Source of the DNA: an uncultured Gemmatimonadales bacterium
GTDB taxonomy: Bacteria > Gemmatimonadota > Gemmatimonadetes > Gemmatimonadales > GWC2-71-9
Length of the DNA: 64,000 bases
Direction: 5' to 3'
Assembly (NCBI GenBank): GCA_963795085.1
Contig: CAWCFX010000001.1
Coordinates: forward strand, 576,001 to 640,000
Shown here: piece by piece, positions 39,734 to 54,135 of the stretch
How the letters are laid out: each line of letters starts with the position of its first letter
How positions within the stretch are numbered: the first letter of the stretch is position 1
Notes under the pieces: generated by a model
What the model was told of the DNA's origin: nothing
Databases searched by the model: none
What the model saw: the letters and a program-made list of their open reading frames with translations, nothing else
Made by a program: the position numbers and the translations under genes

Positions 39734-39808
39734 GGTGGTTGTAGCTCAATCGGTTAGAGCGCCGGACTGTGGTTCCGGAGGTTGCGGGTTCGATCCCCGT
39801 CAGCCACC
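39734..39808 (+). tRNA. tRNA-His (GTG), encoded G-1, no CCA
   Basis: Cloverleaf: GTGGTTG/CAGCCAC, CCGGA-CTGTGGT-TCCGG, GGTTCGAT. Confidence 0.95.
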
Positions 39809-39899
39809 CTGCAGGAGGGAGCCAGAGGGCAGGAGGACAAGAGGGCGTGACCGGGTGCGGTCACCCCTTGCCCCCTGTCCCACTGCCCCCCGGCCACCG

Positions 39900-39972
39900 A
39901 GGTCCGTAGCTCAATTGGTAGAGCACCGGTCTCCAAAACCGGGGGTTGCAGGTTCGATTCCTGCCGGGCCTG
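39900..39972 (+). tRNA. tRNA-Trp (CCA)
   Basis: AGGTCCG/CGGGCCT, CCGGT-CTCCAAA-ACCGG, GGTTCGATT. Confidence 0.95.
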
Positions 39973-39976
39973 TTCA

Positions 39977-40122
39977 CAGTGGGCAAGTGGGCAAGTGGGC
40001 AAGTGGGCACAGTGGGACAGTGGGACAGAGGGCAAGTGGGCAAGTGGGACACTGACCACTGACTCCCGGACCCACTGACCCCCTGACTCCCGGACCCACT
40101 GACCCACTGACCCACTGACCCC
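39977..40122. repeat. Octamer hairpin (AGTGGGCA)n / (GACCCACT)n in tRNA spacer
   Basis: Direct reading. Confidence 0.9.
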
Positions 40123-40129
40123 CTTTGCT

Positions 40130-40202
40130 GGCGCTATCGTCTAGGGGACTAGGACGGGGCCCTCTCAAGGCCCAAACACGGGTTCGAATCCCGTTAGCGC
40201 TA
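40130..40202 (+). tRNA. tRNA-Glu (CTC)
   Basis: GGCGCTA/TAGCGCT, GGGCC-CTCTCAA-GGCCC, GGTTCGAAT. Confidence 0.95.
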
Positions 40203-40209
40203 TAGGAGA

Positions 40210-40322
40210 AGAGTACTGAGTGACGAGTACTGAGGTACTGAGTGCTGAGAGAGTTCGGCTGGCCGGATCATGAACTGAGATGGGAACCACTCAGTACTCA
40301 TTTCTCAGTACTCAGTACTGCT
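40210..40322. repeat. Heptamer hairpin (GAGTACT/GTGCTGA vs CTCAGTA) in tRNA spacer
   Basis: Direct reading. Confidence 0.85.
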
Positions 40323-40329
40323 GGTTTTG

Positions 40330-40401
40330 GGCCCCATCGTCTATCGGTTAGGACACCACTCTTTCAAGGTGGGAAGACGGGTTCGATTCCCGTTGGGGCT
40401 A
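40330..40401 (+). tRNA. tRNA-Glu (TTC)
   Basis: GGCCCCA/TGGGGCT, CCACT-CTTTCAA-GGTGG, GGTTCGATT. Confidence 0.95.
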
Positions 40402-40405
40402 TGCA

Positions 40406-40568
40406 AACTGAACGTGCCGCGTGCAGCGTAGCGCGTACAGCGTAACAGCATGTCGGGCCGGATCTTCACTGAAGGGCAGTTACGCTGCACGTTTAACGCT
40501 GCACGTGCGCTGCACGCTGCACGCTGCACGCTGCACGTCGTACGCTGCACGCTGCACGTGTAGTTCAA
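40406..40568. repeat. Heptamer hairpin (GTGCAGC)n / (GCTGCAC)n in tRNA spacer
   Basis: Direct reading. Confidence 0.88.
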
Positions 40569-40570
40569 GA

Positions 40571-40643
40571 GCGCCGCTAGCTCAATTGGCAGAGCAAGTG
40601 ACTCTTAATCACTAGGTTGTAGGTTCGATTCCTACGCGGCGCA
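40571..40643 (+). tRNA. tRNA-Lys (CTT)
   Basis: GCGCCGC/GCGGCGC, AGTGA-CTCTTAA-TCACT, GGTTCGATT. Confidence 0.95.
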
Positions 40644-41921: not shown

Positions 41922-42300
41922 ATGACGGTCAAGGCGCTCAAGCGCCAGCGGGCCGACCAGGCGCAGGCCCGGCTCCTCCTCGGAGCGGAGTACAACGCCG
42001 AGTTGGACCTAATCTTTGCGACCCATACCGGGGAACCGCTCGACTGGCAGAACATCGCCCATCAGTACTTCCGGCCGATCCTCCGCAAGGCCAAGCTGCC
42101 GATCATCCGCCCCTATGACCTGCGGCACACTGCCGCCACGATCCTCCTCGCAGCCGGGGAACACCCTAAAGATCGTTGCCGAGCGTCTGGGCCATTCGAC
42201 CACCACCCTAACGATGGACACTTACAGCCACGTCCTCCCAGACATGCAGGATGGGGCGGCGACGAGGCTGGGCTCGTTGCTTGCAGTGAGCAACATTTAG
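41922..42300 (+). pseudogene. C-terminal remnant of phage/ICE-type tyrosine integrase, frameshift near 42170
   Basis: YDLRHTAAT, (P)KIVAERLGH, TMDTYSHVLP. Confidence 0.88.
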
Positions 42301-42396
42301 AGTATCCCCGGTGATCAGCACAGCTGAGGGGAGGGCCGCAAGCGGGCTTTACTGCGGCCCTTTTACGCTCCCATGCGTTGATCCGGCGAGGCGAGA

Positions 42397-43475: not shown

Positions 43476-43949
43476 TGGTCAGACTGCGACTTTGGCCCCG
43501 GGTTTCGGTCCCGGTCTTTGTAAAACGCCTGCTATCTCGGCGAATAACGGAAGCTGGCGGGCAGCGTGGAACGCTAAGCAGGGCAATACTCCTCGCTTCT
43601 AAGCGAAACCCCGTTAAGGCCACTGAGACTCTAAATCACTAGGTTGTAGGTTCGATTCATACGCGGCGCATCACGAAAGTAAGAGGAGGCAGCGACCGCA
43701 GGAGCGGCCCCGCTGCCTCTTTCTGTTGGAGCCAGCCGGCAACCCGCAGCCAGCCTGGGCCCCGTCGTTGCGAGTGAGTCCGAGCCGAACGGATCTCGGG
43801 ACATTTGGCTTTCGACGGGTGGTACTGCCGGGCTCGATGACGGAATCAAGGCGTGGAGTCAGAAGGCCACAGATCCCGAGTTGCCCCCCCCTCTTGCGGC
43901 ATGCCCAGCCAGAATGCATGCTTGCCTTATCCCTGTCCCGACAGCCACA

Positions 43950-44765
43950 ATGGCGATCAAGATGTCCAAGCGGTTTGTTGACCGCGCCAAGGCACAGCTA
44001 CGCCGTTATCAGAAGATCATTGAGAGCGCACGAGCCCGGGATGTCGGAGAATCCGATACCTGTGTGATCGTGAGCGACTTTCTCTCCGATGTCCTGGGTT
44101 ACGACAAGTATGAGGATATCACAACCGAGTCTGCCATTCGGGCCACCTTCTGTGACCTAGCGATCAAGTGTGATGGGCGCCTCTGTTACCGCATCGAGGG
44201 TGGAAGTCGGTAGGAACCGATCTCAAGGAGAATCACTTGCGCCAGGCCGTTGACTACGGCGCCAAGGAAGGCTGCGAGTGGGTGTTGCTGACCAATGGCC
44301 AGGAATGGCAGGCCCATCGAATCAAGTATGACCAGCCGATAACACACGACGAGGTGTTCCGGCTTGATCTCCTGGATCCCGGGGCCGAGCTTGGCGGATC
44401 TTGCACGGCACCTGTATCTCATCGCGAAGGAAACCAGCGGTGGGAAGGATATCGATCGATTCTGGCGCCAGAAGGAGGCTACCAGCCGGTTCGTGATTGC
44501 CCAGCTCCTGCTCCAGGATAGCTTGCTGGCCGCTCTACGGCGGGAAGTGCGACGACTCTCGCCCGATGTACGGATTACTCGAGATGACCTCGGCGCGGTT
44601 CTCCGCAACGAGGTCCTCAAGCGGGAGACTTTGGAGGGCGACCGCGCAAAAGCGGCGGAGGCATTGGTCAAGCGGCTTGCACAGAAAGCGACTTCGAAAG
44701 CAGGCTGCGGCAGAAAAACCAGTTGCCGCTGTAGCCCCATGAGAGTTGAAATCCACTTCGCTTGA
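43950..44765 (+). pseudogene. HsdR N-terminal-like PD-(D/E)xK nuclease protein, frameshifted
   Basis: ESDT..IV.D.L.DVLGYDKY, CDLAIK, HLRQAVDYG, WVLLTNG.EW split over three frames. Confidence 0.75.
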
Positions 44766-44819
44766 GGCGAGGCTGCCAGGTTGCCGGTGGCGCCGGCGGG
44801 GCCGGACCACGGTAATGCG

Positions 44820-45139
44820 GGGGGAACCCGGTTTACCTCAACTACGAGCCCAGTCCGGATGCCGCCGGCGCCTGGTCCCACGACGGCCAGAGCATCGCCT
44901 TCATCAGCGGCCGCGACCTGCAGGCCGATCGGATCTACGTCATGACGGCCGATGGTACCAGCCTCCTCCTCGACGTTCCCGAGGCCCCGCCAGGAGGCTT
45001 CCCCGACTGGAGCCCCACCGACAGCCACATCGCCTTTACCGGCAACGCCGAGATCATGACCATGCGGCCGGATGGAAGCCAACTGGTCAACCTGACCAAC
45101 AACCCCGCCCAGGACCGCTACGCCAGCTGGAGCCCGTGA
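44820..45139 (+). pseudogene. C-terminal fragment of TolB/PD40-repeat protein
   Basis: PAWS..GQSIAF, IYVMTADG, PDWSP, DGSQLVNLTNNPAQDRYASWSP. Confidence 0.75.
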
Positions 45140-45241
45140 AGGGTCATCCCTTTCCCTGGCGCGCTCGCTGCCAGGACCTACCAGAACTCACGCACCTGGG
45201 GGAACTCTAAGCGCTGTGTGTATAAACACTTGTGAACACCC

Positions 45242-45291
45242 TTGCCAATTCCATTTCTGGCTGCATACTAGCAACTAACTGGTTGTCAGGC
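45242..45291 (+). promoter_or_regulatory. Putative cassette promoter (TTGCCA-16-CATACT) and attI-like site, copy 1 (core GTCAGGC)
   Basis: Conserved with copy 2; sequence after core is complementary to the end of cassette 1. Confidence 0.65.
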
Positions 45292-45320
45292 GCCACTATC
45301 TGACCCTCACGCGAGGTGGT

Positions 45321-45728
45321 ATGGTAGAATGTCGTTTATCTCAGCCATGGGCACTCGCATTCTTGAGTTGTGGCGTTCTGTTCCTTGCCTGTAGTGACCC
45401 CTCGGCACCTGACTGCGATACTCCTCCTACTATTACTGTAGGGCCCGGTGGCGCACCCTCATTCAGCTGGTCTCCGGCCTGCCCCGTTGCCGACCTCCTT
45501 GTGGAGCCTCCTGATCCGACCGGTACGTGGTACTATCGCATTACCAATGCGAACGGAAAGAATGTTCTTGAACCCCCAATACGATATGGGGAGACCCGAT
45601 TTGGGACGGTTGTTTCGGGTCCCCCACCCGGGGGTCTAATTGCGACCGTAATTTATCGAGTTACGATTTCACGTAGCGATAGCGCCGGTCACTTTGTTAG
45701 CCTCAGCTCCCTTGTCTTCCAGCGCTAG
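45321..45728 (+). CDS. Cassette 1: hypothetical lipoprotein
   Basis: GAGGT RBS, FLAC lipobox. Confidence 0.7.
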   Translation: MVECRLSQPWALAFLSCGVLFLACSDPSAPDCDTPPTITVGPGGAPSFSWSPACPVADLLVEPPDPTGTWYYRITNANGKNVLEPPIRYGETRFGTVVSGPPPGGLIATVIYRVTISRSDSAGHFVSLSSLVFQR

Positions 45729-45743
45729 GGCGTTAATAGTGGC

Positions 45744-45841
45744 GCCGAACCCGCGCTTGGAGCGGTCACCCGCGCCCAGCTACCTGCTGGACGCCACTAT
45801 ATACTGAGCGCGGATTGCCGCTCGAGCGCAAACCGATAAGC
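45744..45841 (+). repeat. attC-like site
   Basis: GCCGAAC..GCGCTTGGAG...CTCGAGCGC..GATAAGC. Confidence 0.8.
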
Positions 45842-45859
45842 GGCTGCCCAGGATCTCGA

Positions 45860-46621
45860 GTGGACATTGAATTCGGTCTCTTCTTCCTGGCTTTCATTGT
45901 CGGGCCCGCTGTGGTCGGCATGGTCTGGCAGTGGCGTGCTCGCGAGCGTAGTATTCGGCACGCGCTCGAGAAACGGAACAACCCCAGGCGTGTTGAGGCT
46001 CTGCTCCCCCTCCTGGACAGGTGTGTCGACATCCTGATCGCGGAGTATGGAGCAGACACCTTCGCTCACCCACAGCTCACGGTCGTTCCCGGAGTCATTG
46101 CGAACCGCCGCGATTTCATCCAGCATCTCATAACGCTCGCAGCAGAACGGTGGCAGATCACCCCGCCCCCAGTGAACCTTTCTGTCGTTCCTCCCAAAGA
46201 CAGGGAACATGCCGCGGGGACCTTTGTGCAGACCACCGCTGACTGGTCATTTAACGTGGATTCTGATGGCACGATAGGGCCCTCGGATGAACCCGCGTGG
46301 AGGATCTGTATTGATCCGGCTCACTTTCACGATGATCTCGCAGTGGCAGCGATCGTGGCCCACGAGTTCGCCCACGGCGTCCTGACCCGGGATGCGGTGG
46401 CTCTCGCCAGCGATGGCGAGAATGAGGTCCTGACAGATGTCGCCGCCGCGCTATCTGGCTTTGGTCAACTCATGCTCCAGATGCAAAACCGGGTGGAGCG
46501 GCAGTACGTGGCCAACGGCGGCCTGTCATACACGGTCGGCGGGCCAGGTTACCTGTGGCCCCAGGAGCTGGCTCATGTTCTCTGGCGCCACGGCAGGCTG
46601 AGCACCAATGGAGCCGCCTAA
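45860..46621 (+). CDS. Cassette 2: membrane-anchored HExxH zinc-peptidase-like protein
   Basis: N-terminal TM, AHEFAH, NEVLTD, GYL; stop lies inside GCCTAAC. Confidence 0.7.
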   Translation: MDIEFGLFFLAFIVGPAVVGMVWQWRARERSIRHALEKRNNPRRVEALLPLLDRCVDILIAEYGADTFAHPQLTVVPGVIANRRDFIQHLITLAAERWQITPPPVNLSVVPPKDREHAAGTFVQTTADWSFNVDSDGTIGPSDEPAWRICIDPAHFHDDLAVAAIVAHEFAHGVLTRDAVALASDGENEVLTDVAAALSGFGQLMLQMQNRVERQYVANGGLSYTVGGPGYLWPQELAHVLWRHGRLSTNGAA

Positions 46622-46644
46622 CACGCCCGCCATCGGAGTCGCGT

Positions 46645-47076
46645 ATGAACGAGCGTCTGTTTTGCGAATTCCTAAGCGGTATTACCGAGGCTTCAGCCAT
46701 CGCTGCTGACTTGAACGGCACGAAGGTCACGCCGGATCACTGGTCTCACCGGACGAGCGCCAACTATCGCGGGTTGCCTATCTCACGCGAGTTTACGGTT
46801 CGGCCGGAACACGTCATTCGGCTTGTGGACGCACTGTCAGCCGGGTCGCTTACATCGGACCAGGTTACGACCGCCCTCTTCTGTGTGGAAGCGGCCCCCG
46901 ATCGGTTTGTGTGGGATACGGATACGACTGAGGGGGACCGCGTTGCCAGCGCAGTCTTCTGGCTGGGGACGCCGGAGATCAATTATCCACTCACGCCGGC
47001 GAACCTGGCGAAGATTCGACATTACCTTGAGACCGGTGAGAACACATTGACGACTGCCGATACCAAGGCCCGCTAA
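46645..47076 (+). CDS. Cassette 3: hypothetical protein
   Basis: GGAG RBS; follows truncated attC (GCCTAACACGC only). Confidence 0.65.
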   Translation: MNERLFCEFLSGITEASAIAADLNGTKVTPDHWSHRTSANYRGLPISREFTVRPEHVIRLVDALSAGSLTSDQVTTALFCVEAAPDRFVWDTDTTEGDRVASAVFWLGTPEINYPLTPANLAKIRHYLETGENTLTTADTKAR

Positions 47077-47083
47077 AGTCGAG

Positions 47084-47129
47084 GCCTAGCATGCGCTTGC
47101 AGCGATCAGCCGCGCCCGGCTACCCGCGG
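47084..47129 (+). repeat. Left half of attC-like site
   Basis: GCCTAGC-ATGCGCTTGCAGCG..CCGCGCCCGGCTACC. Confidence 0.7.
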
Positions 47130-47362
47130 TACCGATCCTGCTGGCCAGCCGCCACGTCCGGAATTGGATGCCAACCAAGACCACGCGCCCGGATGGAAGC
47201 CAGCTCGTCAACCTGACCAACAACCCCGCCCAGGACCGCGACGCCAGCTGGAGCCCGTGAAGCGTCATCCTTCTCCCTTGGCGCGCTCGCTGCCAGAAGC
47301 TACCGTAACTCACGCACCTGGGGGACCCAGGCGCTCGGCTTATATATACTTACGAACACCCC

Positions 47363-47412
47363 TTGCCAATTCCGCTTCTAGCCACATACTAGCAACTAAA
47401 TAGTTGTTAGGC
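47363..47412 (+). promoter_or_regulatory. Putative cassette promoter (TTGCCA-16-CATACT) and attI-like site, copy 2 (CAACTA-AA-TAGTTG, core GTTAGGC)
   Basis: Homologous to copy 1; canonical GTTRRRY core. Confidence 0.7.
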
Positions 47413-47457
47413 GGCCCGAATCCGACACCTGGGTGGAACACTGAGAGGAGAGTCCCG

Positions 47458-47991
47458 ATGGTCTCGATGGTCATGTTGACGTTCCGCCTTGGTGTAGCAT
47501 CGTTGCTCCTTATCGCTACGGCTTGCAGTAATGAGGGGTCTGGCGACCTGCCTGCGGCGGCAGATTTGCTGTTCTCCCTACGTGCCGCGGACTCGTCAGT
47601 TGCGGCCGCAATCGCGGCGCGCGACCCTGAGCGCACTGCGGCATTTTATGCCGATAGCGCCGTCATAATGCCCGTTGCGGAACCGATCGTGGAGGGGCGC
47701 GCGGCTATCCTCGAAGAGTGGCGGCACGTTTTCGGTATTCCCGGCTTCGCCAACAACTCGCGGCTCATTGCGGCCGTGGTGTCCTCCGGTGGCGATTTGG
47801 GATACACTCGCGGAACCTACGAGTCGCTCATGCTGAGCCCCCGCGGGCAGAAGCTTGTCGAACGGGGGAAGTGGGTCACAATCTGGAAGCGCGGCGCGGA
47901 TGGCAGCTGGCGAATCGTCCTCGACATCTTTAATACGGACACGCCGCCACCAGAACATCAGCCCAGCACCGCGGAGCGTTCCGACCACTAA
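47458..47991 (+). CDS. Cassette 4: NTF2/DUF4440 (YybH-like) lipoprotein
   Basis: FYADSA..MP, GRAAI, GDLGYTRGTY, GKWVTIWKR.ADGSWRI. Confidence 0.85.
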   Translation: MVSMVMLTFRLGVASLLLIATACSNEGSGDLPAAADLLFSLRAADSSVAAAIAARDPERTAAFYADSAVIMPVAEPIVEGRAAILEEWRHVFGIPGFANNSRLIAAVVSSGGDLGYTRGTYESLMLSPRGQKLVERGKWVTIWKRGADGSWRIVLDIFNTDTPPPEHQPSTAERSDH

Positions 47992-48027
47992 TGTCGTGAT
48001 GCGCGAGCGGCCGACTGACACGCGGCC

Positions 48028-48126
48028 GCCTATCACGCGCTTGGAGTGGCCATTCGCGCCAGGTCACCCGAAGGACGCCAGGACATTATGAGCGCGGATT
48101 GACAGCTCAAGCGCAAACCGTTAGGT
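48028..48126 (+). repeat. attC-like site
   Basis: GCCTATC..GCGCTTGGAG...CTCAAGCGC..GTTAGGT. Confidence 0.85.
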
Positions 48127-48154
48127 GGCCCAAAAGCACATGTGACCGGTGACA

Positions 48155-48271
48155 ATGAACAGACTTCGCGCTTTAGTAGAAAAGGTTGCTCATTGGGACT
48201 TCATCATTCAGACCATCTTTGTCATCGGCCTCATCGTCGTTGGCTTAGTGCTGTACTTGAAGCAACGGTAG
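48155..48271 (+). CDS. Cassette 5: 38-aa single-TM microprotein
   Basis: MNRLRALVEKVAHWDFIIQTIFVIGLIVVGLVLYLKQR fills the cassette. Confidence 0.55.
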   Translation: MNRLRALVEKVAHWDFIIQTIFVIGLIVVGLVLYLKQR

Positions 48272-48294
48272 TTTCAATGGATGTTGAGCGGGCC

Positions 48295-48390
48295 ACCTAA
48301 CACGCGCTTGGAGTGGCCATTCGCGCCAGGCCACTCGCTGGACGCCAGGATGTGATCAGCGCGAATGCCATTCAAGCGCCAACCGTAGGC
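48295..48390 (+). repeat. attC-like site
   Basis: ACCTAAC..GCGCTTGGAG...TTCAAGCGC..GTAGGC. Confidence 0.88.
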
Positions 48391-48400
48391 GGCATTTCTG

Positions 48401-48649
48401 GTGACTTGGCCTGAACGAACTCTCTCGACTCGATTGCTGGCCGGCCTGGTAGGGGCGGTCTTGGGGGCGTTCATAGGATTCGGCGTAGGCGCAGGGTGGT
48501 TCCGGTCGATGAACAACGGACATCCGCCGATCGCCCAGTTCGTTGCGGGAGCGGCGATCTTAGCTTTTCTCATTTCATTCTGGGTCGGCGACCCTGCAGT
48601 CCGCTTTCTAATGCGGATGATTGGTGGAGGACGGCCGAAGCGTTTGTGA
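48401..48649 (+). CDS. Cassette 6: small two-TM protein
   Basis: Hydrophobic ORF filling the cassette. Confidence 0.6.
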   Translation: MTWPERTLSTRLLAGLVGAVLGAFIGFGVGAGWFRSMNNGHPPIAQFVAGAAILAFLISFWVGDPAVRFLMRMIGGGRPKRL

Positions 48650-48659
48650 CGCCAATGCC

Positions 48660-48757
48660 GCCTAACACGCGCTTGGATCGGTCACCCGCGCCCAGCTACC
48701 TGCTGGACGCCACTATATACTGAGCGCGGAATGCCACTCAAGCGCCAACCGTTAGGC
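48660..48757 (+). repeat. attC-like site (most canonical copy)
   Basis: GCCTAAC ... GTTAGGC with GCGCTTGGA/TCAAGCGC inner boxes. Confidence 0.92.
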
Positions 48758-48796
48758 CGCACAACCCATTCGCCGGCAGCACTTCGGGAAAGGTCG

Positions 48797-49138
48797 TTGG
48801 TGAGATTCTCGTGGTCATGCATCCTGCTTATGCCGTCTGCCTTGGCTTGCGCCAGGCAAACGGTGATGGACAAGAACTCGCCACAACCGATCGTGAAAGT
48901 GGTGGCGGAATACCCCGCCGAACTCCGACCACTCAACCGAGTAGGCCACGTCATAGCGATTTTTATGATTGACACACTGGGTGTGCCACAGGAGCATACG
49001 ATCAAGATTGTGCAGGCCTCACATCCGGCATTTGTCGCTCCAGTGCGACAGGCTATACCGCGCTGGCGCTTTCGCCCGAGTGAAGTAACAGGGGATAGAA
49101 CACCGTGGGTGCAACTCAGGTTTGACTTTTCACCGTAG
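48797..49138 (+). CDS. Cassette 7: TonB C-terminal-domain lipoprotein
   Basis: EYPAEL, G.V.A.F.IDT.G, WRFRP; ALAC lipobox. Confidence 0.75.
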   Translation: MVRFSWSCILLMPSALACARQTVMDKNSPQPIVKVVAEYPAELRPLNRVGHVIAIFMIDTLGVPQEHTIKIVQASHPAFVAPVRQAIPRWRFRPSEVTGDRTPWVQLRFDFSP

Positions 49139-49156
49139 TGCCAGACAGAGGGTGCT

Positions 49157-49254
49157 GCCTCACCCGCGCTTGGAGCGGTCAGCCGCGCCCGGCTACCTGC
49201 TGGACGCCACTATATGCTGAGGCGCGTATTGCCGCTCGAACGCCACCGTCAGGC
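49157..49254 (+). repeat. attC-like site
   Basis: GCCTCAC..GCGCTTGGAG...CTCGAACGC..GTCAGGC. Confidence 0.82.
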
Positions 49255-49309
49255 AGCCCTGAGAGAGGACCTCCCGAATTCACGCTCCCTGAGGCCGGCC
49301 CGGCAACGT

Positions 49310-49927
49310 ATGTTCCTTGGACTGATTGGCACGGCCGTCCTGGCGGTGGATCTTCTTCTCGTACACAACGAACAGATTGTCACGTGGGTACGGTTCACTC
49401 CGCCCGCAGTTGGGTTAGTGGCGATTGTGTTGTCTGCTGTTGATCGCGAGACATTGCTGGGGTTTAGCCGGATCCGAGAGCGACCGTGGGCCGTGCTCAT
49501 GGCCATCGCGATTCTTGGCACCTATCTATGGGTGAGCGCATATTCGTCACCCGTTGGGTCCGGGGCTGTCGACTGCCGGTTGCAGGAGCGACTCTGTACG
49601 GCCCCTTACTGGCTCGCGCCGGGGATTCAACAGCTGACCGTTCTGGCGCCTCTGGTCGAAGAGAGTGTATATCGCGCGGTGGGGTTCGGAGCCTTGGCGC
49701 TAGCTCTTGGGCCCATTCCGGCCCTCATCATCTCAACGGCTGCGTTTGGGTTCCTGCATCACCTCTACGGAAGCTTGCGGTGGTTCCACCTCGCCGCTGG
49801 ACTGGCGTACACGGGCCTGTACTGGTATGGCAGGTCCCTGGCTTTGAACATTGCGACTCACGCAGCGATGAACTGGGCGGTTATGCTGAGAAACCTCGCC
49901 CGCTGGTACGCTTACTATACGCCGTGA
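49310..49927 (+). CDS. Cassette 8: CPBP (CAAX/Abi) intramembrane metalloprotease
   Basis: APLVEE..YR, S..FG.LH, H...N motifs. Confidence 0.85.
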   Translation: MFLGLIGTAVLAVDLLLVHNEQIVTWVRFTPPAVGLVAIVLSAVDRETLLGFSRIRERPWAVLMAIAILGTYLWVSAYSSPVGSGAVDCRLQERLCTAPYWLAPGIQQLTVLAPLVEESVYRAVGFGALALALGPIPALIISTAAFGFLHHLYGSLRWFHLAAGLAYTGLYWYGRSLALNIATHAAMNWAVMLRNLARWYAYYTP

Positions 49928-49941
49928 TAACCCATGGAATC

Positions 49942-50040
49942 GCCCGACAGGTGCGTGCAGTCGCCGATGCGCGCTGGGCCCACTCGATGGACATCAGCAC
50001 ATGATCACCGCGAATCCCGCTCAAGCGCCAACCGGTAGGC
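49942..50040 (+). repeat. attC-like site with degenerate left arm
   Basis: Right arm CTCAAGCGCCAACCGGTAGGC conserved. Confidence 0.7.
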
Positions 50041-50065
50041 GCTACAACCATCACAACCGGAAGCG

Positions 50066-50425
50066 ATGAGCGACCAACTCGGCGGCCTGCTCAGAAGCCC
50101 GATCGCCCAGGCAGTGATCCCCGTCGGGATGCTGCTGCTCTACGTGCGGTTCGTCTGGGAATATCGCCGCGCCCTTCGGCGTCGCCTGGAGGATCCGGAA
50201 TGGAAGGTCAATACAACGCGATTCCTCGTGTGGAAGTCGAGAATGTGGTCATTCCTCGGTGTGGGAGCGTGGATTCTGCTCGTGGTGGCGGTGGACTTGT
50301 TTGGAGGGACGACGCCAGGCACCACCACGGCGTTCACGTGGGGGTTCGGCATTCTCTTTGTGTGGGTCGGGGCGACTGCGTTCATCGAGGGATTCATGGA
50401 AGGTCCCGGCGGGAATAGCCAGTGA
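50066..50425 (+). CDS. Cassette 9: three-TM hypothetical protein
   Basis: Hydrophobic ORF. Confidence 0.6.
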   Translation: MSDQLGGLLRSPIAQAVIPVGMLLLYVRFVWEYRRALRRRLEDPEWKVNTTRFLVWKSRMWSFLGVGAWILLVVAVDLFGGTTPGTTTAFTWGFGILFVWVGATAFIEGFMEGPGGNSQ

Positions 50426-50451
50426 CGCCGCCGGTTCGTGGCCCGGTCGCA

Positions 50452-50495
50452 CGGTCAACCGCGCCGGGTTACCCGCTGGACGCAGGTACTCAGGC
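50452..50495 (+). repeat. Internally deleted attC remnant
   Basis: CGGTCAACCGCGCC..TACCCGCTGGACGC..CAGGC. Confidence 0.6.
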
Positions 50496-50527
50496 AGCCA
50501 CAGTAGGGTTCTCGTGGGAGGTCAGCG

Positions 50528-50749
50528 ATGGACCAAGGCAGCGCCGATCGGGCAAAACCCGGAATCTTTCTCTACGCTTGCTCGGGATGTGCCTGCATAC
50601 TTGGCGTGTCGCTCGTCACCCTGGGCTTACTCAGCCGTGGCGGACACCCGATGCTCCCGATCCTCGCTGGAGTGTTGGCTCTCGTGCTCGGCAGCCTCCT
50701 CTTGGCTTGGGCCCGCGGCCGCTCGCGCAGGCGGACGAGGGCAGCTTAG
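50528..50749 (+). CDS. Cassette 10: small two-TM protein
   Basis: GGAGGT RBS, hydrophobic ORF. Confidence 0.6.
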   Translation: MDQGSADRAKPGIFLYACSGCACILGVSLVTLGLLSRGGHPMLPILAGVLALVLGSLLLAWARGRSRRRTRAA

Positions 50750-50773
50750 CTTCACGGAATCAATGTCGTGGCT

Positions 50774-50868
50774 GCCTAACACGCTTGGAGCAGTCAACCG
50801 CGGCTGACTACCCGCTGGACCCCACCACCTGACTCGCGCGGATGCCGCTCAAGCGCAAACCGTTAGGA
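50774..50868 (+). repeat. attC-like site
   Basis: GCCTAAC..GCTTGGAG...CTCAAGC..GTTAGGA. Confidence 0.85.
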
Positions 50869-50917
50869 ATCACGGCCACACATCCCCTATATGTCAGGCT
50901 CCTCCAGGAGGGCTCTT

Positions 50918-51170
50918 ATGCAACTGCAACTCACGGCAGTCTTTCAGAAGGTTCCCGAGGGCTATATTGGCTTTATTGAGGAACTTCCCGGCGCCAATAC
51001 TCAAGGGGCAACCCTGGACGAGGCGCGCGCAAATCTGACCGAGGCTGTCCACCTCGTGTTTGAGGCCAATCGCGCGTTGACGGAGGAACCGTGAAGTGCC
51101 GCGACACCGCGAACTCAACAACCACTTGGCTCGGACGACCTGTCGGGATCTAGAGATCGAGGAGCCCTGA
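50918..51170 (+). pseudogene. Cassette 11: hicB-like antitoxin (50918-51094) plus C-terminal hicA-like toxin fragment (51096-51170)
   Basis: ELPGANTQGATLDEARANL.EA; VPRHRELNNHLARTTCRDLEI. Confidence 0.75.
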
Positions 51171-51319
51171 GGCCCTGACACGCGCTTGGAGCGGTCAACC
51201 GCGCCCATGTCCATGCGTTGGATGGAATCCACCTCGTCAACCTGACCAGCCCCCCAGGATTGCGACGCCAGCTGGAGCCCGTGAAGGTTCCCCCTTCATC
51301 TTACCCCCGCACCGCTTCA

Positions 51320-51660
51320 GCATACTCGACACACCCGGCAAAATCGTCCGCGCGCCCTTCATAATCGAAGTTCACCTCACCGTCATACTCGACACGCCCG
51401 GCATAATCGTCCGCGCGCCCTTCATAATAGAAGTTGACCTCACCGTCATAGCCGGCACACCCGGCATAATCGTCCGCGCGCCCTTCATGATTGATGTTCA
51501 CCTCACCTTCTTACTCCGCACTCCCGAAATAATCGTCCGCGCGCTCGACGTAATCCACAGCAAACTGTAAATAATCCACAGCACACCCGGCAAAATGTTC
51601 CGCGCGGCCTGCGTAATCCACAGTGCTGTGACCGTCATACTCCACGCGGCCTGCGAAATC
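51320..51660. repeat. 21-nt periodic tandem repeat with 63-nt higher-order unit
   Basis: CATACTCGACACACCCGGCA(A/T)AATCGTCCGCGCGCCCTTCATAAT..GTT.ACCTCACCGT x~3.5, then decaying units. Confidence 0.88.
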
Positions 51661-52062
51661 CCGTGTCCCGTCCACTTTCGGCGCCAGCCGAGGCACGAAA
51701 ACACCCGAACCTGTCCTCCCGGGGAGACGCCTGCGGCATATTCGAAAACGTGGGCCTCCAACCGATGAACACGTTTTCAATGCTCCCGCCACCACCTTCC
51801 CGAAGAGCCCGCCACCACGTGGCCCCAGCCTGGCCGATCCCCTTGATCGTCAAGGAGATCGCTGCACTCAGCCTCCCCGCATCGCAACTCGTCGCCTCAC
51901 CTGCCGCACCTCTCGCGCGCCACCCTCCATTGCCCGATGGCCCGGCTGATGCCTTCGGACAGGGCGTCGGCCCGGAGTCGGGACGCCGGGACCGAGCAGT
52001 CCTCTTTCATTGGTTCCGGTCCGCCCCCGACGCGGGCCGGCTGCTCCAGAAAGGAGCGTTGT

Positions 52063-52734
52063 ATGAGATCCCCCATTCGTAGGAAACTGGAGATGGCCGC
52101 CCGGGTCCGGGAGTTCTGCCAGGCCCACATCTCCACCGAACCCGGGTTTGCTCCGGTCCTGGCACGACTGGAAGCCACCCTGGTTCGCGGTACCGCGATC
52201 GACGCCCGGCAGCAGCAAGGCTTCATGGCGTCCCGCGTCGCCCGGGGCCGCCGGCGGGAGCTCCGCCGGCTGATCCACTTCCAGCTGGTCCGCTACGTAG
52301 TCGCCCTCGGCGCCTACGCCACCCGGGCCCAGGCCGGCGAGTCGAAGCGGTTCAAGATTCCCAACTCGAGCCTCCCCAACGCCGCCTTCGTGACCGCCGT
52401 GCGCGGGCTCATCGGCGACGCCACCCAGCACCAGGAAGAACTGGTGGCCCTGGGGATGGCCCCGGCCCTGCTGGACGAGCTGACCCTCCAGGTCGGCGAG
52501 TTCGAAACCGCCGCCGAGGCGGGGCGGACCGCGCGCCGCGACCACATCGGCGCGCGGGAAGAGCTGGAAGAGGTCAACGCCAGCATCAGCGGCGAGGTCC
52601 GCGCCATTGACGGCATCGTCGGCTATAGCTTCGGGAACAACCGCGACATCATGGCGGAATGGCGCGCCGCCAAGCGGATCCCCGGTCCGCGGAAAGGAAA
52701 CAATGGGAATGTCGGAGAGACGAAAGCCGCTTAA
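52063..52734 (+). CDS. Hypothetical alpha-helical protein
   Basis: AAGGAG RBS, host-like codon usage, no motif recognised. Confidence 0.75.
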   Translation: MRSPIRRKLEMAARVREFCQAHISTEPGFAPVLARLEATLVRGTAIDARQQQGFMASRVARGRRRELRRLIHFQLVRYVVALGAYATRAQAGESKRFKIPNSSLPNAAFVTAVRGLIGDATQHQEELVALGMAPALLDELTLQVGEFETAAEAGRTARRDHIGAREELEEVNASISGEVRAIDGIVGYSFGNNRDIMAEWRAAKRIPGPRKGNNGNVGETKAA

Positions 52735-52736
52735 AG

Positions 52737-52878
52737 AGATTGAGGGAATGTTGGAATTGAGGGAAATGTGGAATTGGAATGCAGTTCCAATTCCCACATT
52801 CCTTCAATTCCACCATTCCCTCAATTCCACCATTCCCTCAATTCCAACATTCCCTCAATTCCACAATTCCCTCAATCT
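52737..52878. repeat. Family A hairpin repeat
   Basis: GAATTGAGGGAA units then ATTCCCTCAATTCC units. Confidence 0.9.
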
Positions 52879-52880
52879 AT

Positions 52881-53315
52881 CTATCTGATCTGTTCCATCA
52901 ACGTCGCCAGGTCAAAGTACTGCCGCTGCAGCTTCACCTTTCCATCCACCACCTGCATCACGTTACAGGCCCGGAGCGAGATCTTCCGGCCGGTCGCCGG
53001 CAGCGGTCCCTTCGGCGTCTGGAGCGTCCCCGTATGGGTGCCGGTCCAGGTCAGCTCGAGGACCACCATGTCCCCGCTCACGTGGCTGGCATGGAAGGTG
53101 GGCCGAGAGTCGGGAAGCGCCGCCGCCCAGCCGCGGTACATCTCCAGCACCTGCTCCGGCCCTTCGGCCTTCCGGCCGGACGCCACCTCGTCATACACCA
53201 CGTCGGACGTCATCGCCGCCCGGGCGGCCTCCCAGTCCTTCGCGGCATAGGCCAGGAACGGCGCCTTGGCGGCTTCCACCAGGCCGGGGCGGGTGGCGGT
53301 TGACTGCGCAGACAT
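52881..53315 (-). CDS. SnoaL-like ester cyclase (NTF2 fold)
   Basis: PD, GD.VV, WTGTHTG..PATGRKI, QYFD; AGGAGG RBS. Confidence 0.85.
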   Translation of the reverse strand: MSAQSTATRPGLVEAAKAPFLAYAAKDWEAARAAMTSDVVYDEVASGRKAEGPEQVLEMYRGWAAALPDSRPTFHASHVSGDMVVLELTWTGTHTGTLQTPKGPLPATGRKISLRACNVMQVVDGKVKLQRQYFDLATLMEQIR

Positions 53316-53392
53316 AAAGCTTCCTCCTGTCAGGGGGTAGATGGGTTGGAAATTCAACCTTCTCTACGCCGGAAGACACGGGGCGGATCTAT

Positions 53393-53552
53393 TAATTGAG
53401 GGAATGGGGGAATTGAGGGAATCCGGGAATTGAGGGAATCCGGGAATTGAGGGAATCTAGGAATTGAGGGAATGTTGGAATTGAAGGAAATGTTGAAATT
53501 GAGTGCAGTTCCAATTCCACATTTCCCTCAATTCCAACATTCCGTCAATTTC
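53393..53552. repeat. Family A hairpin repeat
   Basis: Direct reading. Confidence 0.9.
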
Positions 53553-53949
53553 CCTCCTCGTTCATCACCATCCACGAGGTCCCGAACCGGTCCCGCAGCA
53601 TGCCGAAGCGGGAGGCGTAGAAGGTCTTGTCCAGCTTCACGAAGATCTCGCCGCCGTCGGCCAGCAGGGCATAGATCCGTTCGGCCTCCGCGTCGCTGTC
53701 CACCCGGAGCGACAGGTAGGCGCTCCGCATCGGCTCGGCGGCCGGGATGTCAGCCCCCATGAGGACCGTGTCGCCGATCTCGATCCGGGCGTGGAGAATC
53801 TTCTGTTCCCAGCCGGCCGGGATGCCCTCCCGCTTCGGCTGGTCGCCGTGCCGCTGCACCATGGTGATCCGGCCGCCCAGGTGCTCTTCGTAGAAGCGGA
53901 ACGCCTCCTCGCAGGTCCCGCGGTAGTTGATATAGATGTCGAGCTTCAT
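53545..53949 (-). CDS. VOC/PhnB-like glyoxalase-family protein
   Basis: EEAFRFYEEHLGG, ILHA.I.IG, FGMLRDRFG.SWMV. Confidence 0.9.
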   Translation of the reverse strand: MKLDIYINYRGTCEEAFRFYEEHLGGRITMVQRHGDQPKREGIPAGWEQKILHARIEIGDTVLMGADIPAAEPMRSAYLSLRVDSDAEAERIYALLADGGEIFVKLDKTFYASRFGMLRDRFGTSWMVMNEEGN

Positions 53950-53961
53950 TTTTAGATCCAG

Positions 53962-54125
53962 GGAATTGAGTGATGCAGGGAGTCGTGGAACTGAATGGGA
54001 AATGTAAGGAATGGGGGAATTGAGGGAAATGTGGAATTGAGGGAATGTTGGAATTGAAGGAATGTTGGAATTGAATGCAGTTCCAATTCCACATTTCCCT
54101 CAATTCCAACATTCCGTCAATTCCC
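53962..54125. repeat. Family A hairpin repeat
   Basis: Near-identical to 53461-53552. Confidence 0.9.
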
Positions 54126-54135
54126 CCACCCTCCC

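Follow-up and report, generated by a model that had tools for sequence, protein, structure and literature searches.

Positions 45.0-51.3 kb of the DNA analyzed here raise the question of how an array of gene cassettes with no integrase of its own came to carry repeated attI-like heads, and whether those heads have been used. The stretch as a whole (the window) comprises 64,000 nt of the forward strand of contig CAWCFX010000001.1 from an uncultured Gemmatimonadales bacterium (assembly GCA_963795085.1). The locus is a satellite cassette array, or CALIN (a cluster of attC sites with no integron integrase), of the genome's own integron system. Its duplicated attI head, one copy of which lies within the array, is an unusual but explainable variant of known integron biology.

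A repeated module in an integrase-free array

A scan of the whole genome with NCBIfam models returned a single match above the TIGR02249 cut-off, an integron integrase gene (intI) without stops at C2:15552-16487 on the minus strand (375 bits vs. a cut-off of 265); no integron integrase was found in the window. The attC sites were located with a covariance model, R1, built from the window's array. In the window, R1 matched seven intact attCs at 74-110 bits and gave weak partial matches at 47084, 50441, and 51173. Elsewhere, matches of at least 60 bits were obtained at 21 sites on C2:364-11384 and at 16 sites on C1:1381141-1389785, all on the strand of intI, and one further attC of this main array was cut by the end of contig C1. 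The matches on C2 and C1 indicate a large chromosomal integron that was split by the assembly, with the window locus as a CALIN of the same family: the main array has >37 cassettes with the same family of attC, and the attCs of the two arrays share 80-89% DNA identity. The window locus has at least two attCs on one strand with the R''-L''...L'-R' structure, short co-oriented open reading frames (ORFs), and no intI nearby, and as the window contains no intI it is not a complete integron. In the consensus fold of the attCs, the L''/L' and inner stems were kept in 5-7 of 7 sequences for most pairs, and R''/R' pairing was present in the single-site fold.

The features that make up the repeated module are as follows.

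44819..45139, plus strand: PD40-repeat ("TolB-like") gene fragment, truncated at its 5' end, C-terminal ~106 amino acids (aa) (Pfam PD40, E 5e-10)
45055..45285, plus strand: module copy 1, consisting of PD40 tail, spacer of ~125 nt, and the left part of attI, whose last base is the crossover G (45285) (repeat families; blastn, 85% over 240 nt)
45242..45269, plus strand: promoter-like TTGCCA-16-CATACT of copy 1, candidate cassette promoter (Pc) (consensus scan, 9/12)
45264..45291, plus strand: attI-type site 1, with CATACTAG box, dyad, and GTCAGGC core; crossover 45285/45286 (pattern matches and pairing)
47163..47406, plus strand: module copy 2, consisting of PD40 tail, spacer, and the left part of attI, whose last base is the crossover G (47406) (repeat search, blastn)
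47363..47390, plus strand: promoter-like TTGCCA-16-CATACT of copy 2, candidate Pc (consensus scan, 9/12)
47385..47412, plus strand: attI-type site 2, with CATACTAG box, 10-bp dyad, and GTTAGGC core; crossover 47406/47407 (pattern matches, fold, and pairing)
51207..51297, plus strand: module copy 3, PD40 tail only, its frame broken by indels, ending ~13 nt past the stop (repeat search, blastn)

The initial annotation had described a block of ~235 bp that occurs twice, made up of the end of a TolB-like gene, a spacer, a promoter-like motif, a dyad, and a core. A repeat search and blastn against the whole genome bore this out, with copies at 45055-45292 and 47176-47413 that are 85% identical over 240 nt; the start of the second copy was moved from 47179 to about 47163-47176. 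Each of the two full copies contains the last ~28 codons of the PD40 gene, a spacer of ~125 nt, TTGCCA-16-CATACT, the dyad CAACTA..(T/G)GTTG, and a GTYAGGC core, which reads GTCAGGC at 45285-45291 in copy 1 and GTTAGGC at 47406-47412 in copy 2. The copies have diverged, as had been noted, and have done so unevenly, with 92% identity in the gene tail vs. 81% in spacer and core. The further recurrence of the TolB part that had been seen near 51206-51295 was likewise found, by blastn, as a third, partial copy at ~51207-51297 with 80-82% identity over 83-91 nt; spacer and attI are absent from it, and it adjoins a minus-strand ORF of 63-nt repeats. The stop codons of the three tails lie at 45137-45139, 47258-47260, and 51282-51284. 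No copy beyond these three was detected by blastn in the whole 3.89-Mb assembly. The PD40 fragment that leads into copy 1 has in-frame stop codons upstream and shares 64% aa identity with the C-terminal 107 aa of a full-length 287-aa gene of a same-genus relative. Two other identities for the module were dropped: a giant attC, for which no L'/R'' partners were visible by eye, and a group IIC-attC intron or small RNA, for which Rfam gave no match (a scan of 43.5-54.5 kb returned none inside the modules).

A repeated head could in principle arise if the assembler had chained strain variants of one array head. The assembly is of metagenome type (6 contigs, 93% complete), the main array is broken at contig ends, and strain variants are present in a metagenome run, all of which would fit such an error. 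However, the copies are 15% apart and each sits in unique flanks, which makes them too diverged, and their surroundings too different, for a collapsed-repeat error, and their junctions are joints between attC and tail rather than collapsed repeats. In addition, a 151-nt contig spans 51154-51304, including the junction of attC and tail 3 and the end of tail 3, with 1 difference, and a 217-nt contig covers 47126-47207. This contig support comes from one public DNA run labeled as a hot-spring metagenome, in which 9% of sampled words were found and contigs were short, of low depth, and 90-99% identical; as the run may be the source sample, the support may not be independent. Among the sequencing runs listed with this stretch there was none of RNA. 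Taken as a whole, an assembly artefact is hardly credible here.

attI identity and use of the heads

Judged by its sequence, each module ends in an attI of the type found in this clade, which takes up its last ~45 nt and has the CATACTAG box, the GTYAGGC core, and, two bases ahead of that core, an AATAG-type box. The pattern CATACTAG-N(2-40)-GTYAGGC occurs three times in the genome, once in each module and once where the main array begins, and 0 times in the reversed control, while CATACTAG alone occurs seven times in 3.9 Mb, including the three heads. Similarly, AATAGNNGTTAGGC was found twice (module 2 and main head) and not at all in the control. The initial annotation had proposed comparing these sites with an attI next to intI, and the search was productive: with intI located on contig C2, the main array head (C2:11907-11856) was found to have both boxes of the window's heads, reading CATACTAG-N27-TAAATAG-GA-GTTAGGC. 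This head is separated from intI by three genes (3.6 kb), which by eye encode an AraC-like regulator (opposite strand), a PLP (pyridoxal phosphate)-decarboxylase-like protein, and a cupin-like protein. The ~500 nt that follow intI on C2 are full of TCCAACC/GGTTGGA-type repeats, and in the main integron (C2:11856-16511) a direct repeat, GAGTTAGAC, stands ~40 nt before the GAGTTAGGC core, as it does in relative G161 (L070). Another CALIN of the genome, at C1:1096421-1098165, was of no use as a comparison head, being cut by an IS3-like transposase gene.

The same boxes were seen where relatives carry an attI linked to intI. The intI-linked attI of relative L022 is matched at 13/14 nt by module 2 and at 18/19 nt by the main head, and relatives G038 and G146 carry CAGCATACTAG(T/G)AGTTAGGC. 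In G038, CAGCATACTAGTAGTTAGGC is located 263 nt after the intI stop; in G146, CAGCATACTAGGAGTTAGGC is followed by a protein-kinase cassette whose attC-like site shows R'' and R' boxes by eye and had no match to R1. Beyond the core boxes, no homology was found between the module spacer and the spacers that separate intI and attI in relatives.

That these sites lie downstream of intI is a property of the clade. Integron integrases were detected in 37 of 61 genomes of relatives at E 1e-40 or better, 34 of them above the cut-off. In 16 of the 25 relatives' loci with enough flank, GTTAG[GA] was present 20-420 nt downstream of intI on the same strand, whereas the canonical position (upstream of intI, opposite strand) yielded 0/27 and the upstream position on the same strand 1/27; downstream of intI on the opposite strand the motif occurred at 7/25 loci, as expected from the R'' of first attCs. 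Ahead of the downstream cores lies an A+T-rich box such as CAATTG, TACAAT, CCAATAG, or CATACTAG. The nearest named IntI relatives are those of Gemmatimonadaceae and Gemmatimonadales metagenome-assembled genomes (55-56% identity), and the downstream core was also present in 3 of 8 of their loci. From these position counts we conclude that the clade has co-directional, "inverted-integrase" integrons with attI downstream of intI, and the picture of a canonical attI and Pc beside a divergent intI therefore fails in this clade. Integrons with intI co-directional with the cassettes have been described in the Treponema group and others, according to PMC4889954; unlike those, the integron of this genome has 3.6 kb and three genes between intI and the main attI, and the heads in the window are without intI.

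Evidence that the heads in the window have been used comes from the DNA on the right of the cores. Homology between the modules ends at the core. At head 1, the 11 nt to the right of the core are the exact reverse complement of the R'' flank of attC 45744; at head 2, the 9 nt to the right are the exact reverse complement of the R'' flank of attC 48028; and at the main head the same holds for 12 nt (by eye). Also by eye, the 5' ends of cassettes pair with the R'' flank of their own attC after attC 48028 and attC 48295, less exactly after attC 48660, and less well in the cassettes that come later. Because of this pairing with its own attC flank, the DNA to the right of each core is read as cassette DNA joined at the canonical G|TY crossover. 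We take the two junctions as direct sequence evidence that attI × attC insertion occurred at both integrase-free heads and that their GTYAGGC words are not chance occurrences.

Neither head 1 nor head 2 adjoins intI; a fragment of the PD40 gene stands upstream instead. These heads are attI-like sites that are probably served in trans by the genome's IntI. The two integrase-free heads with cassettes of their own that the initial annotation had recognized are thus present, with no intI at the locus and cassettes after each head, and its idea of satellite heads served in trans is upheld by the sequence likeness, the used crossovers, and the existence of an IntI in trans with an array of the same family, although not as an undescribed system.

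An alternative is that the cores are ordinary secondary (attG-type) sites that happen to follow a PD40 gene, their likeness to attI being due to chance or to convergence on the preferences of IntI. In its favor, IntI1 uses a very large number of GWT sites for insertion, which may be how small CALINs arise (preprint 10.1101/2022.09.11.507474), no intI is adjacent, and AATAGNNGTTAGGC is not enriched across the family. In the genomes of 400 family members, AATAGNNGTTAGGC occurred at 24 places in 22 genomes, not above the reversed control, and intI lay directly upstream at only 4 of the 26 loci examined in the family-wide motif survey. The motif alone is therefore not diagnostic outside this genome; it carries strong weight only within this genome and at sites beside intI, a limit that tells against our assignment. 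On the other hand, CATACTAG and TAAATAG-NN-GTTAGGC are shared with the main head in the same order and occur together nowhere else in 3.9 Mb, and the same boxes recur at the intI-linked sites of relatives. Chance or convergent attG-type cores are accordingly very improbable.

Heads without an adjacent intI were also met in relatives, outside a systematic survey. In G146, one attI lies where the intI contig ends, and a second head (L014, G146:C460) follows PD40 and SnoaL_3 genes on another contig; over 94 nt, a head in G332 (L083, G332:C9) and the intI-linked head of G168 share 72% identity. Both L014 and L083 are followed by cassettes and have no intI within 1.4 kb upstream. On the strength of these examples, satellite integrase-free heads may be recurrent in this family.

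The promoter-like motif could drive the sub-array at each intact head and so re-promote distal cassettes. Its hexamers, TTGCCA and CATACT, are identical in both copies while 5 of the 16 spacer bases differ, and the scanned region contains five promoter-like sites vs. 2.2 ± 1.6 in shuffles. By eye, the main head and relatives also have the CATACT(AG) box, and the -35 hexamer was not seen at the main head or in the attI regions of relatives. As the -35 hexamer is not shared, the CATACTAG/CATACT(AG) box may be an IntI-binding element rather than a -10 element.

Origin of the internal head

The route by which the second head came to lie inside the array has to be read from the cassettes and junctions around it. 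From 45286 to 51206 there are eleven small plus-strand ORFs of 52-268 aa, four of which have Pfam matches (DUF4440, TonB_C, Rce1-like, and UPF0150) and most of the others none; a search of the rest of the genome at E 1e-5 or better gave no paralogue of any cassette protein. The attC sites number seven intact and four damaged, with at least four aberrant junctions in 6 kb.

45321..45728, plus strand: cassette ORF, 135 aa, no Pfam match (ORF list, Pfam)
45744..45844, plus strand: intact attC (R1, 106.7 bits)
45815..46621, plus strand: cassette ORF, 268 aa (mechanical ORF), no Pfam match (ORF list, Pfam)
~46617-46633, plus strand: attC remnant, R'' only, which fuses two cassettes (by eye)
46555..47076, plus strand: cassette ORF, 173 aa (mechanical ORF), no Pfam match (ORF list, Pfam)
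47084..47160, plus strand: defective attC, with R'', L'', and inner stem kept, central ~24 nt missing, and right end degenerate (R1, 14.1 bits; alignment)
47404..47991, plus strand: cassette ORF, DUF4440/SnoaL-like (Pfam DUF4440, E 1.2e-12)
48028..48129, plus strand: intact attC (R1, 102.9 bits)
48295..48393, plus strand: intact attC (R1, 101.8 bits); cassette ORF 48142-48300, 52 aa
48660..48760, plus strand: intact attC (R1, 109.7 bits); cassette ORF 48401-48649, 82 aa
49157..49257, plus strand: intact attC (R1, 96.2 bits); cassette ORF 48731-49138 with TonB_C domain (Pfam)
49942..50043, plus strand: intact attC (R1, 74.4 bits); cassette ORF 49214-49927, Rce1-like/CPBP protease (Pfam)
50441..50500, plus strand: short, aberrant attC remnant, centre kept, ends unlike (R1, 13.7 bits; alignment); cassette ORF 50066-50425
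50775..50871, plus strand: intact attC (R1, 85.7 bits); cassette ORF 50528-50749
51173..51206, plus strand: left attC remnant of 34 nt, with R'', L'', and start of the inner stem (repeat search), preceded by the HicB/UPF0150-like cassette ORF 50891-51094

Remnants of attC precede copy 2 (47084-~47160) and copy 3 (51173-51206). The initial annotation had seen a left half-attC before each; this describes the site before copy 3, whereas the one before copy 2 is nearly whole with a central deletion. It aligns to R1 from end to end with 24 nt missing from its center, its fold gave no attC-type hairpin, and a metagenome contig has extra letters at 47125|47126, exactly the deletion point. It is joined to module copy 2 somewhere within 47147-47176. 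Copies 2 and 3 begin at the same base within the PD40 tail, to within 1 nt.

On balance, we think it likely, though well short of certain, that the locus is a CALIN of its own integron system, with attI-type heads used in trans and an internal head made by IntI; the IntI-mediated route to the internal head, taken alone, is a tentative choice that falls just short of an even call. The PD40 fragment at the array head was probably imported together with the array. The second head would be a copy of the ~235-nt unit of PD40 tail, spacer, and left part of attI, generated when IntI recombined an attC or attI core with a GWT-type secondary site in the PD40 tail, either by unequal sister-chromatid exchange or by excision and re-insertion of a circular pseudo-cassette bearing attI. 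Cassettes were inserted at the module attIs with the crossover falling after the G, as the sequence of the head junctions shows, and the IntI that inserted them probably acted in trans. Cassette turnover would afterwards have been independent at the two heads, and the junction attCs would have lost R' pairing and decayed, freezing the structure. The third copy would be a remnant trimmed by deletion.

Two features of the module are in keeping with this route. The unit has the 3' end of an attC at its left and an IntI crossover at its right, which is the pattern expected from recombination by IntI at a secondary site. In copy 1, the sequence at the tail position that matches the start of copies 2 and 3 is GATCA, in agreement with the GWT consensus for genomic insertion sites of IntI1 (preprint 10.1101/2022.09.11.507474).

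The three PD40 tails share 84-92% identity among themselves, 62-74% with same-genus genes, and 44-60% with the genome's own full-length PD40 gene (C1:505873-506738). As the tails are nearest to each other, the heads descend from one ancestor, and the initial annotation's alternative of a tandem capture of allelic heads loses ground, no relative coming as near to the tails as they do to one another. Such capture would mean that related DNA with PD40 gene, attI, and array was taken up from other strains and that homologous or homology-facilitated recombination in the PD40 tail or in attCs stacked allelic heads. In its favor, the copies differ by 8-19% and their cassette sets do not overlap; the locus, which is low in G+C (0.56-0.63 vs. 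~0.69), has a tRNA cluster and a decayed island as neighbors; a relative's gene resembles the tails more closely than the host's own gene does; a metagenome contains variant contigs; and cassette shuffling in chromosomal integrons is reported to be driven by transformation (PMC12614218). However, each tail has its closest relative among the other two, 400 family genomes and two contig collections yielded no donor-like locus, and the common start base of copies 2 and 3 would be unexpected from random DNA ends. We regard head capture as improbable.

Several findings weigh against the formation of the internal head by IntI. The junction of copy 2 can be placed only within ~47147-47176 (~30 nt), and two alignments of the right half of its attC compete. 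Of the attC that precedes copy 3, 34 nt remain, which calls for a further deletion. There is a 15% difference between heads 1 and 2, but the cassettes include no surviving duplicate. The proposed search for the module across relatives had little yield: in 61 same-genus and family genomes matches were confined to the PD40 tail, and against 400 family genomes the spacer and attI part gave chance-level matches only (at most 39 nt, E at least 0.001). The exact 28-nt core pattern had 0 matches in metagenome contigs and 0 in genome contigs. Neither the spacer nor the complete module had a counterpart in these collections, so that the order of events cannot be followed. Finally, tandem duplications of PD40 tails without integron parts occur at the native PD40 locus and in a same-genus relative, which makes duplication without IntI plausible.

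The native PD40 lipoprotein gene has a second copy of ~190 nt of its own 3' end ~140 nt downstream (C1:506870-507057, 84% identical), and same-genus relative L007 has two whole copies of the PD40 gene in tandem. Genes of this family tend to undergo tandem duplication at their 3' end.

A plain tandem duplication is consequently a serious rival to the IntI route. The PD40 3' end and ~150 nt with an attI/attG-like site would first have been doubled or tripled by slippage or unequal homologous exchange, and IntI insertions would have followed. Besides the precedents of the second tail at C1:506870-507057 and the relative's two whole tandem gene copies, this explanation has in its favor that it, too, would end the homology at the core and place an attC against the next tail, and the 15% divergence suits an old duplication. 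It requires, however, that the right end of the unit coincide with the IntI crossover and that the next unit start directly after, and the duplications at the native locus and in the relative have different boundaries and contain no attI-like sequence. Moreover, the head motif is shared with the attI of the resident integron, which implies that it is integron-derived and not native PD40 flank. Serious as it is, we judge plain duplication unlikely, and we retain the IntI-mediated route as the preferred reading.

Setting, known systems, and meaning

The array follows, in this order, a tRNA gene cluster, a decayed island, apparently frameshifted ORFs, and the truncated PD40 fragment; G+C is 0.56-0.63 over 40-54 kb, compared to ~0.65-0.74 in the rest of the window. 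The cluster consists of five tRNA genes (His, Trp, Glu, Glu, and Lys) at 39735-40643, and the spacers between them are tandem repeats of 7-8 nt followed by their complements, which would fold into long inter-tRNA hairpins. At tRNA-Lys, a decayed genomic island extends from 40643, the end of the cluster, to 43672, with a 45-nt direct repeat of the 3' end of the tRNA at 43628-43672. The island contains tyrosine-recombinase fragments, a frameshifted C-terminal one lying at 41922-42300; the integrase fragment at 41922-42311 had Pfam Phage_integrase as its sole match, below the cut-off, and belongs to this island. Three overlapping plus-strand ORFs (110, 94, and 133 aa) at 43881-44765 look like one frameshifted gene and have no significant Pfam match.

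On the far side of the array, the minus-strand ORF at 51298-51800 consists of six 63-nt tandem repeats that encode a 21-aa repeat (YDGEVNFDYEGRADDYAGCVE-like); its frame has an internal stop, it has no Pfam match, and it ends directly at module copy 3. Further on, tandem repeats of 17 nt (GGAATTGAGGGAAT-type units, then their complement) form long hairpins at 52732-52886, 53386-53554, and 53996-54128. These occupy the gaps between minus-strand genes for a 309-aa protein, a SnoaL cyclase-like protein, a glyoxalase-family protein, and an ankyrin-repeat protein. The 17-nt unit occurs in ~56 clusters genome-wide and thus represents a dispersed family of palindromic repeats resembling REP (repetitive extragenic palindromic) elements. 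Rfam matches to microRNA families at these hairpins (52.7-54.1 kb) were all below the gathering score and were rejected as spurious.

In comparison with known systems, the locus resembles CALINs as described by Cury et al. (2016; PMC4889954): it has at least seven attCs of one family with no intI within many kb, and a complete integron elsewhere in the genome has an integrase that could act on the cassettes. In that account, CALINs are defined regardless of attI, which is unknown for most integrons. By contrast, the window locus has recognizable attI-type heads, two intact and one remnant, with one of the intact heads internal.

Attention is also drawn to fragments of attI, 14-244 nt long, inside the arrays of class 1 and 2 integrons. 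As ΔattI-type cassettes these recombine with IntI1, and they are thought to arise from off-site crossovers (PMC12901181). As in the ΔattI-type and attI1-ORF-attI1 arrangements of that source, a piece of attI in the window lies inside the array, ends at a GTTRRRY core, and is followed by the next cassette: copy 2 (47163-47412) is a partial attI after the cassette ORF 46555-47076, with a canonical cassette next. In PMC12901181, however, a resistance cassette on a mobile integron in clinical bacteria has the ΔattI in place of its attC, whereas here a decayed attC is retained in front. Also unlike the ΔattI-type described there, the copy takes in a promoter-like motif and a chromosomal PD40 gene's tail, and the platform is without intI, in an environmental host, with copies that have diverged by 15%.

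The preprint 10.1101/2022.09.11.507474 reports attG insertion, in which IntI acts at GWT sites that are not att sites, as proposed here for the junction in the PD40 tail, and excision "outside" the insertion point, which can carry or delete chromosomal DNA. In contrast to attG insertion, the cassette-proximal cores of the window are attI-like, and only the left junction of the module would be of attG type.

Every part of the locus fits known integron reactions, and the case for a new kind of system is weak. The claim of an undescribed system in the initial annotation gives way to the CALIN class and to the attI fragments already reported in arrays (PMC12901181). The locus is a CALIN with its own duplicated attI head that combines known elements, namely a CALIN, ΔattI-type junctions, and co-directional integrons.

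A bolder and rather doubtful extension is that the integron of this lineage is a distributed multi-head system, in which one IntI serves several scattered attI heads (three intact here, and intI-less ones in G146 and G332) and in which attI and the promoter-like region are mobile as an "attI cassette" between two IntI crossovers. If so, such moves would seed new points of insertion and expression in or outside arrays, and distal cassettes would be expressed without reshuffling.

In integron theory, only cassettes near the single attI and Pc are expressed, and CALINs are regarded as passive stores from which cassettes can be excised and into which none are captured. A CALIN with attI heads of its own and insertions evidenced by sequence could capture, and perhaps express, cassettes in trans, and such capture would blur the line between "integron" and "CALIN". 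The comparison also shows that attI sites can be recognized in an environmental clade without annotated attI, and it yields for this clade a concrete attI motif together with a co-directional architecture.

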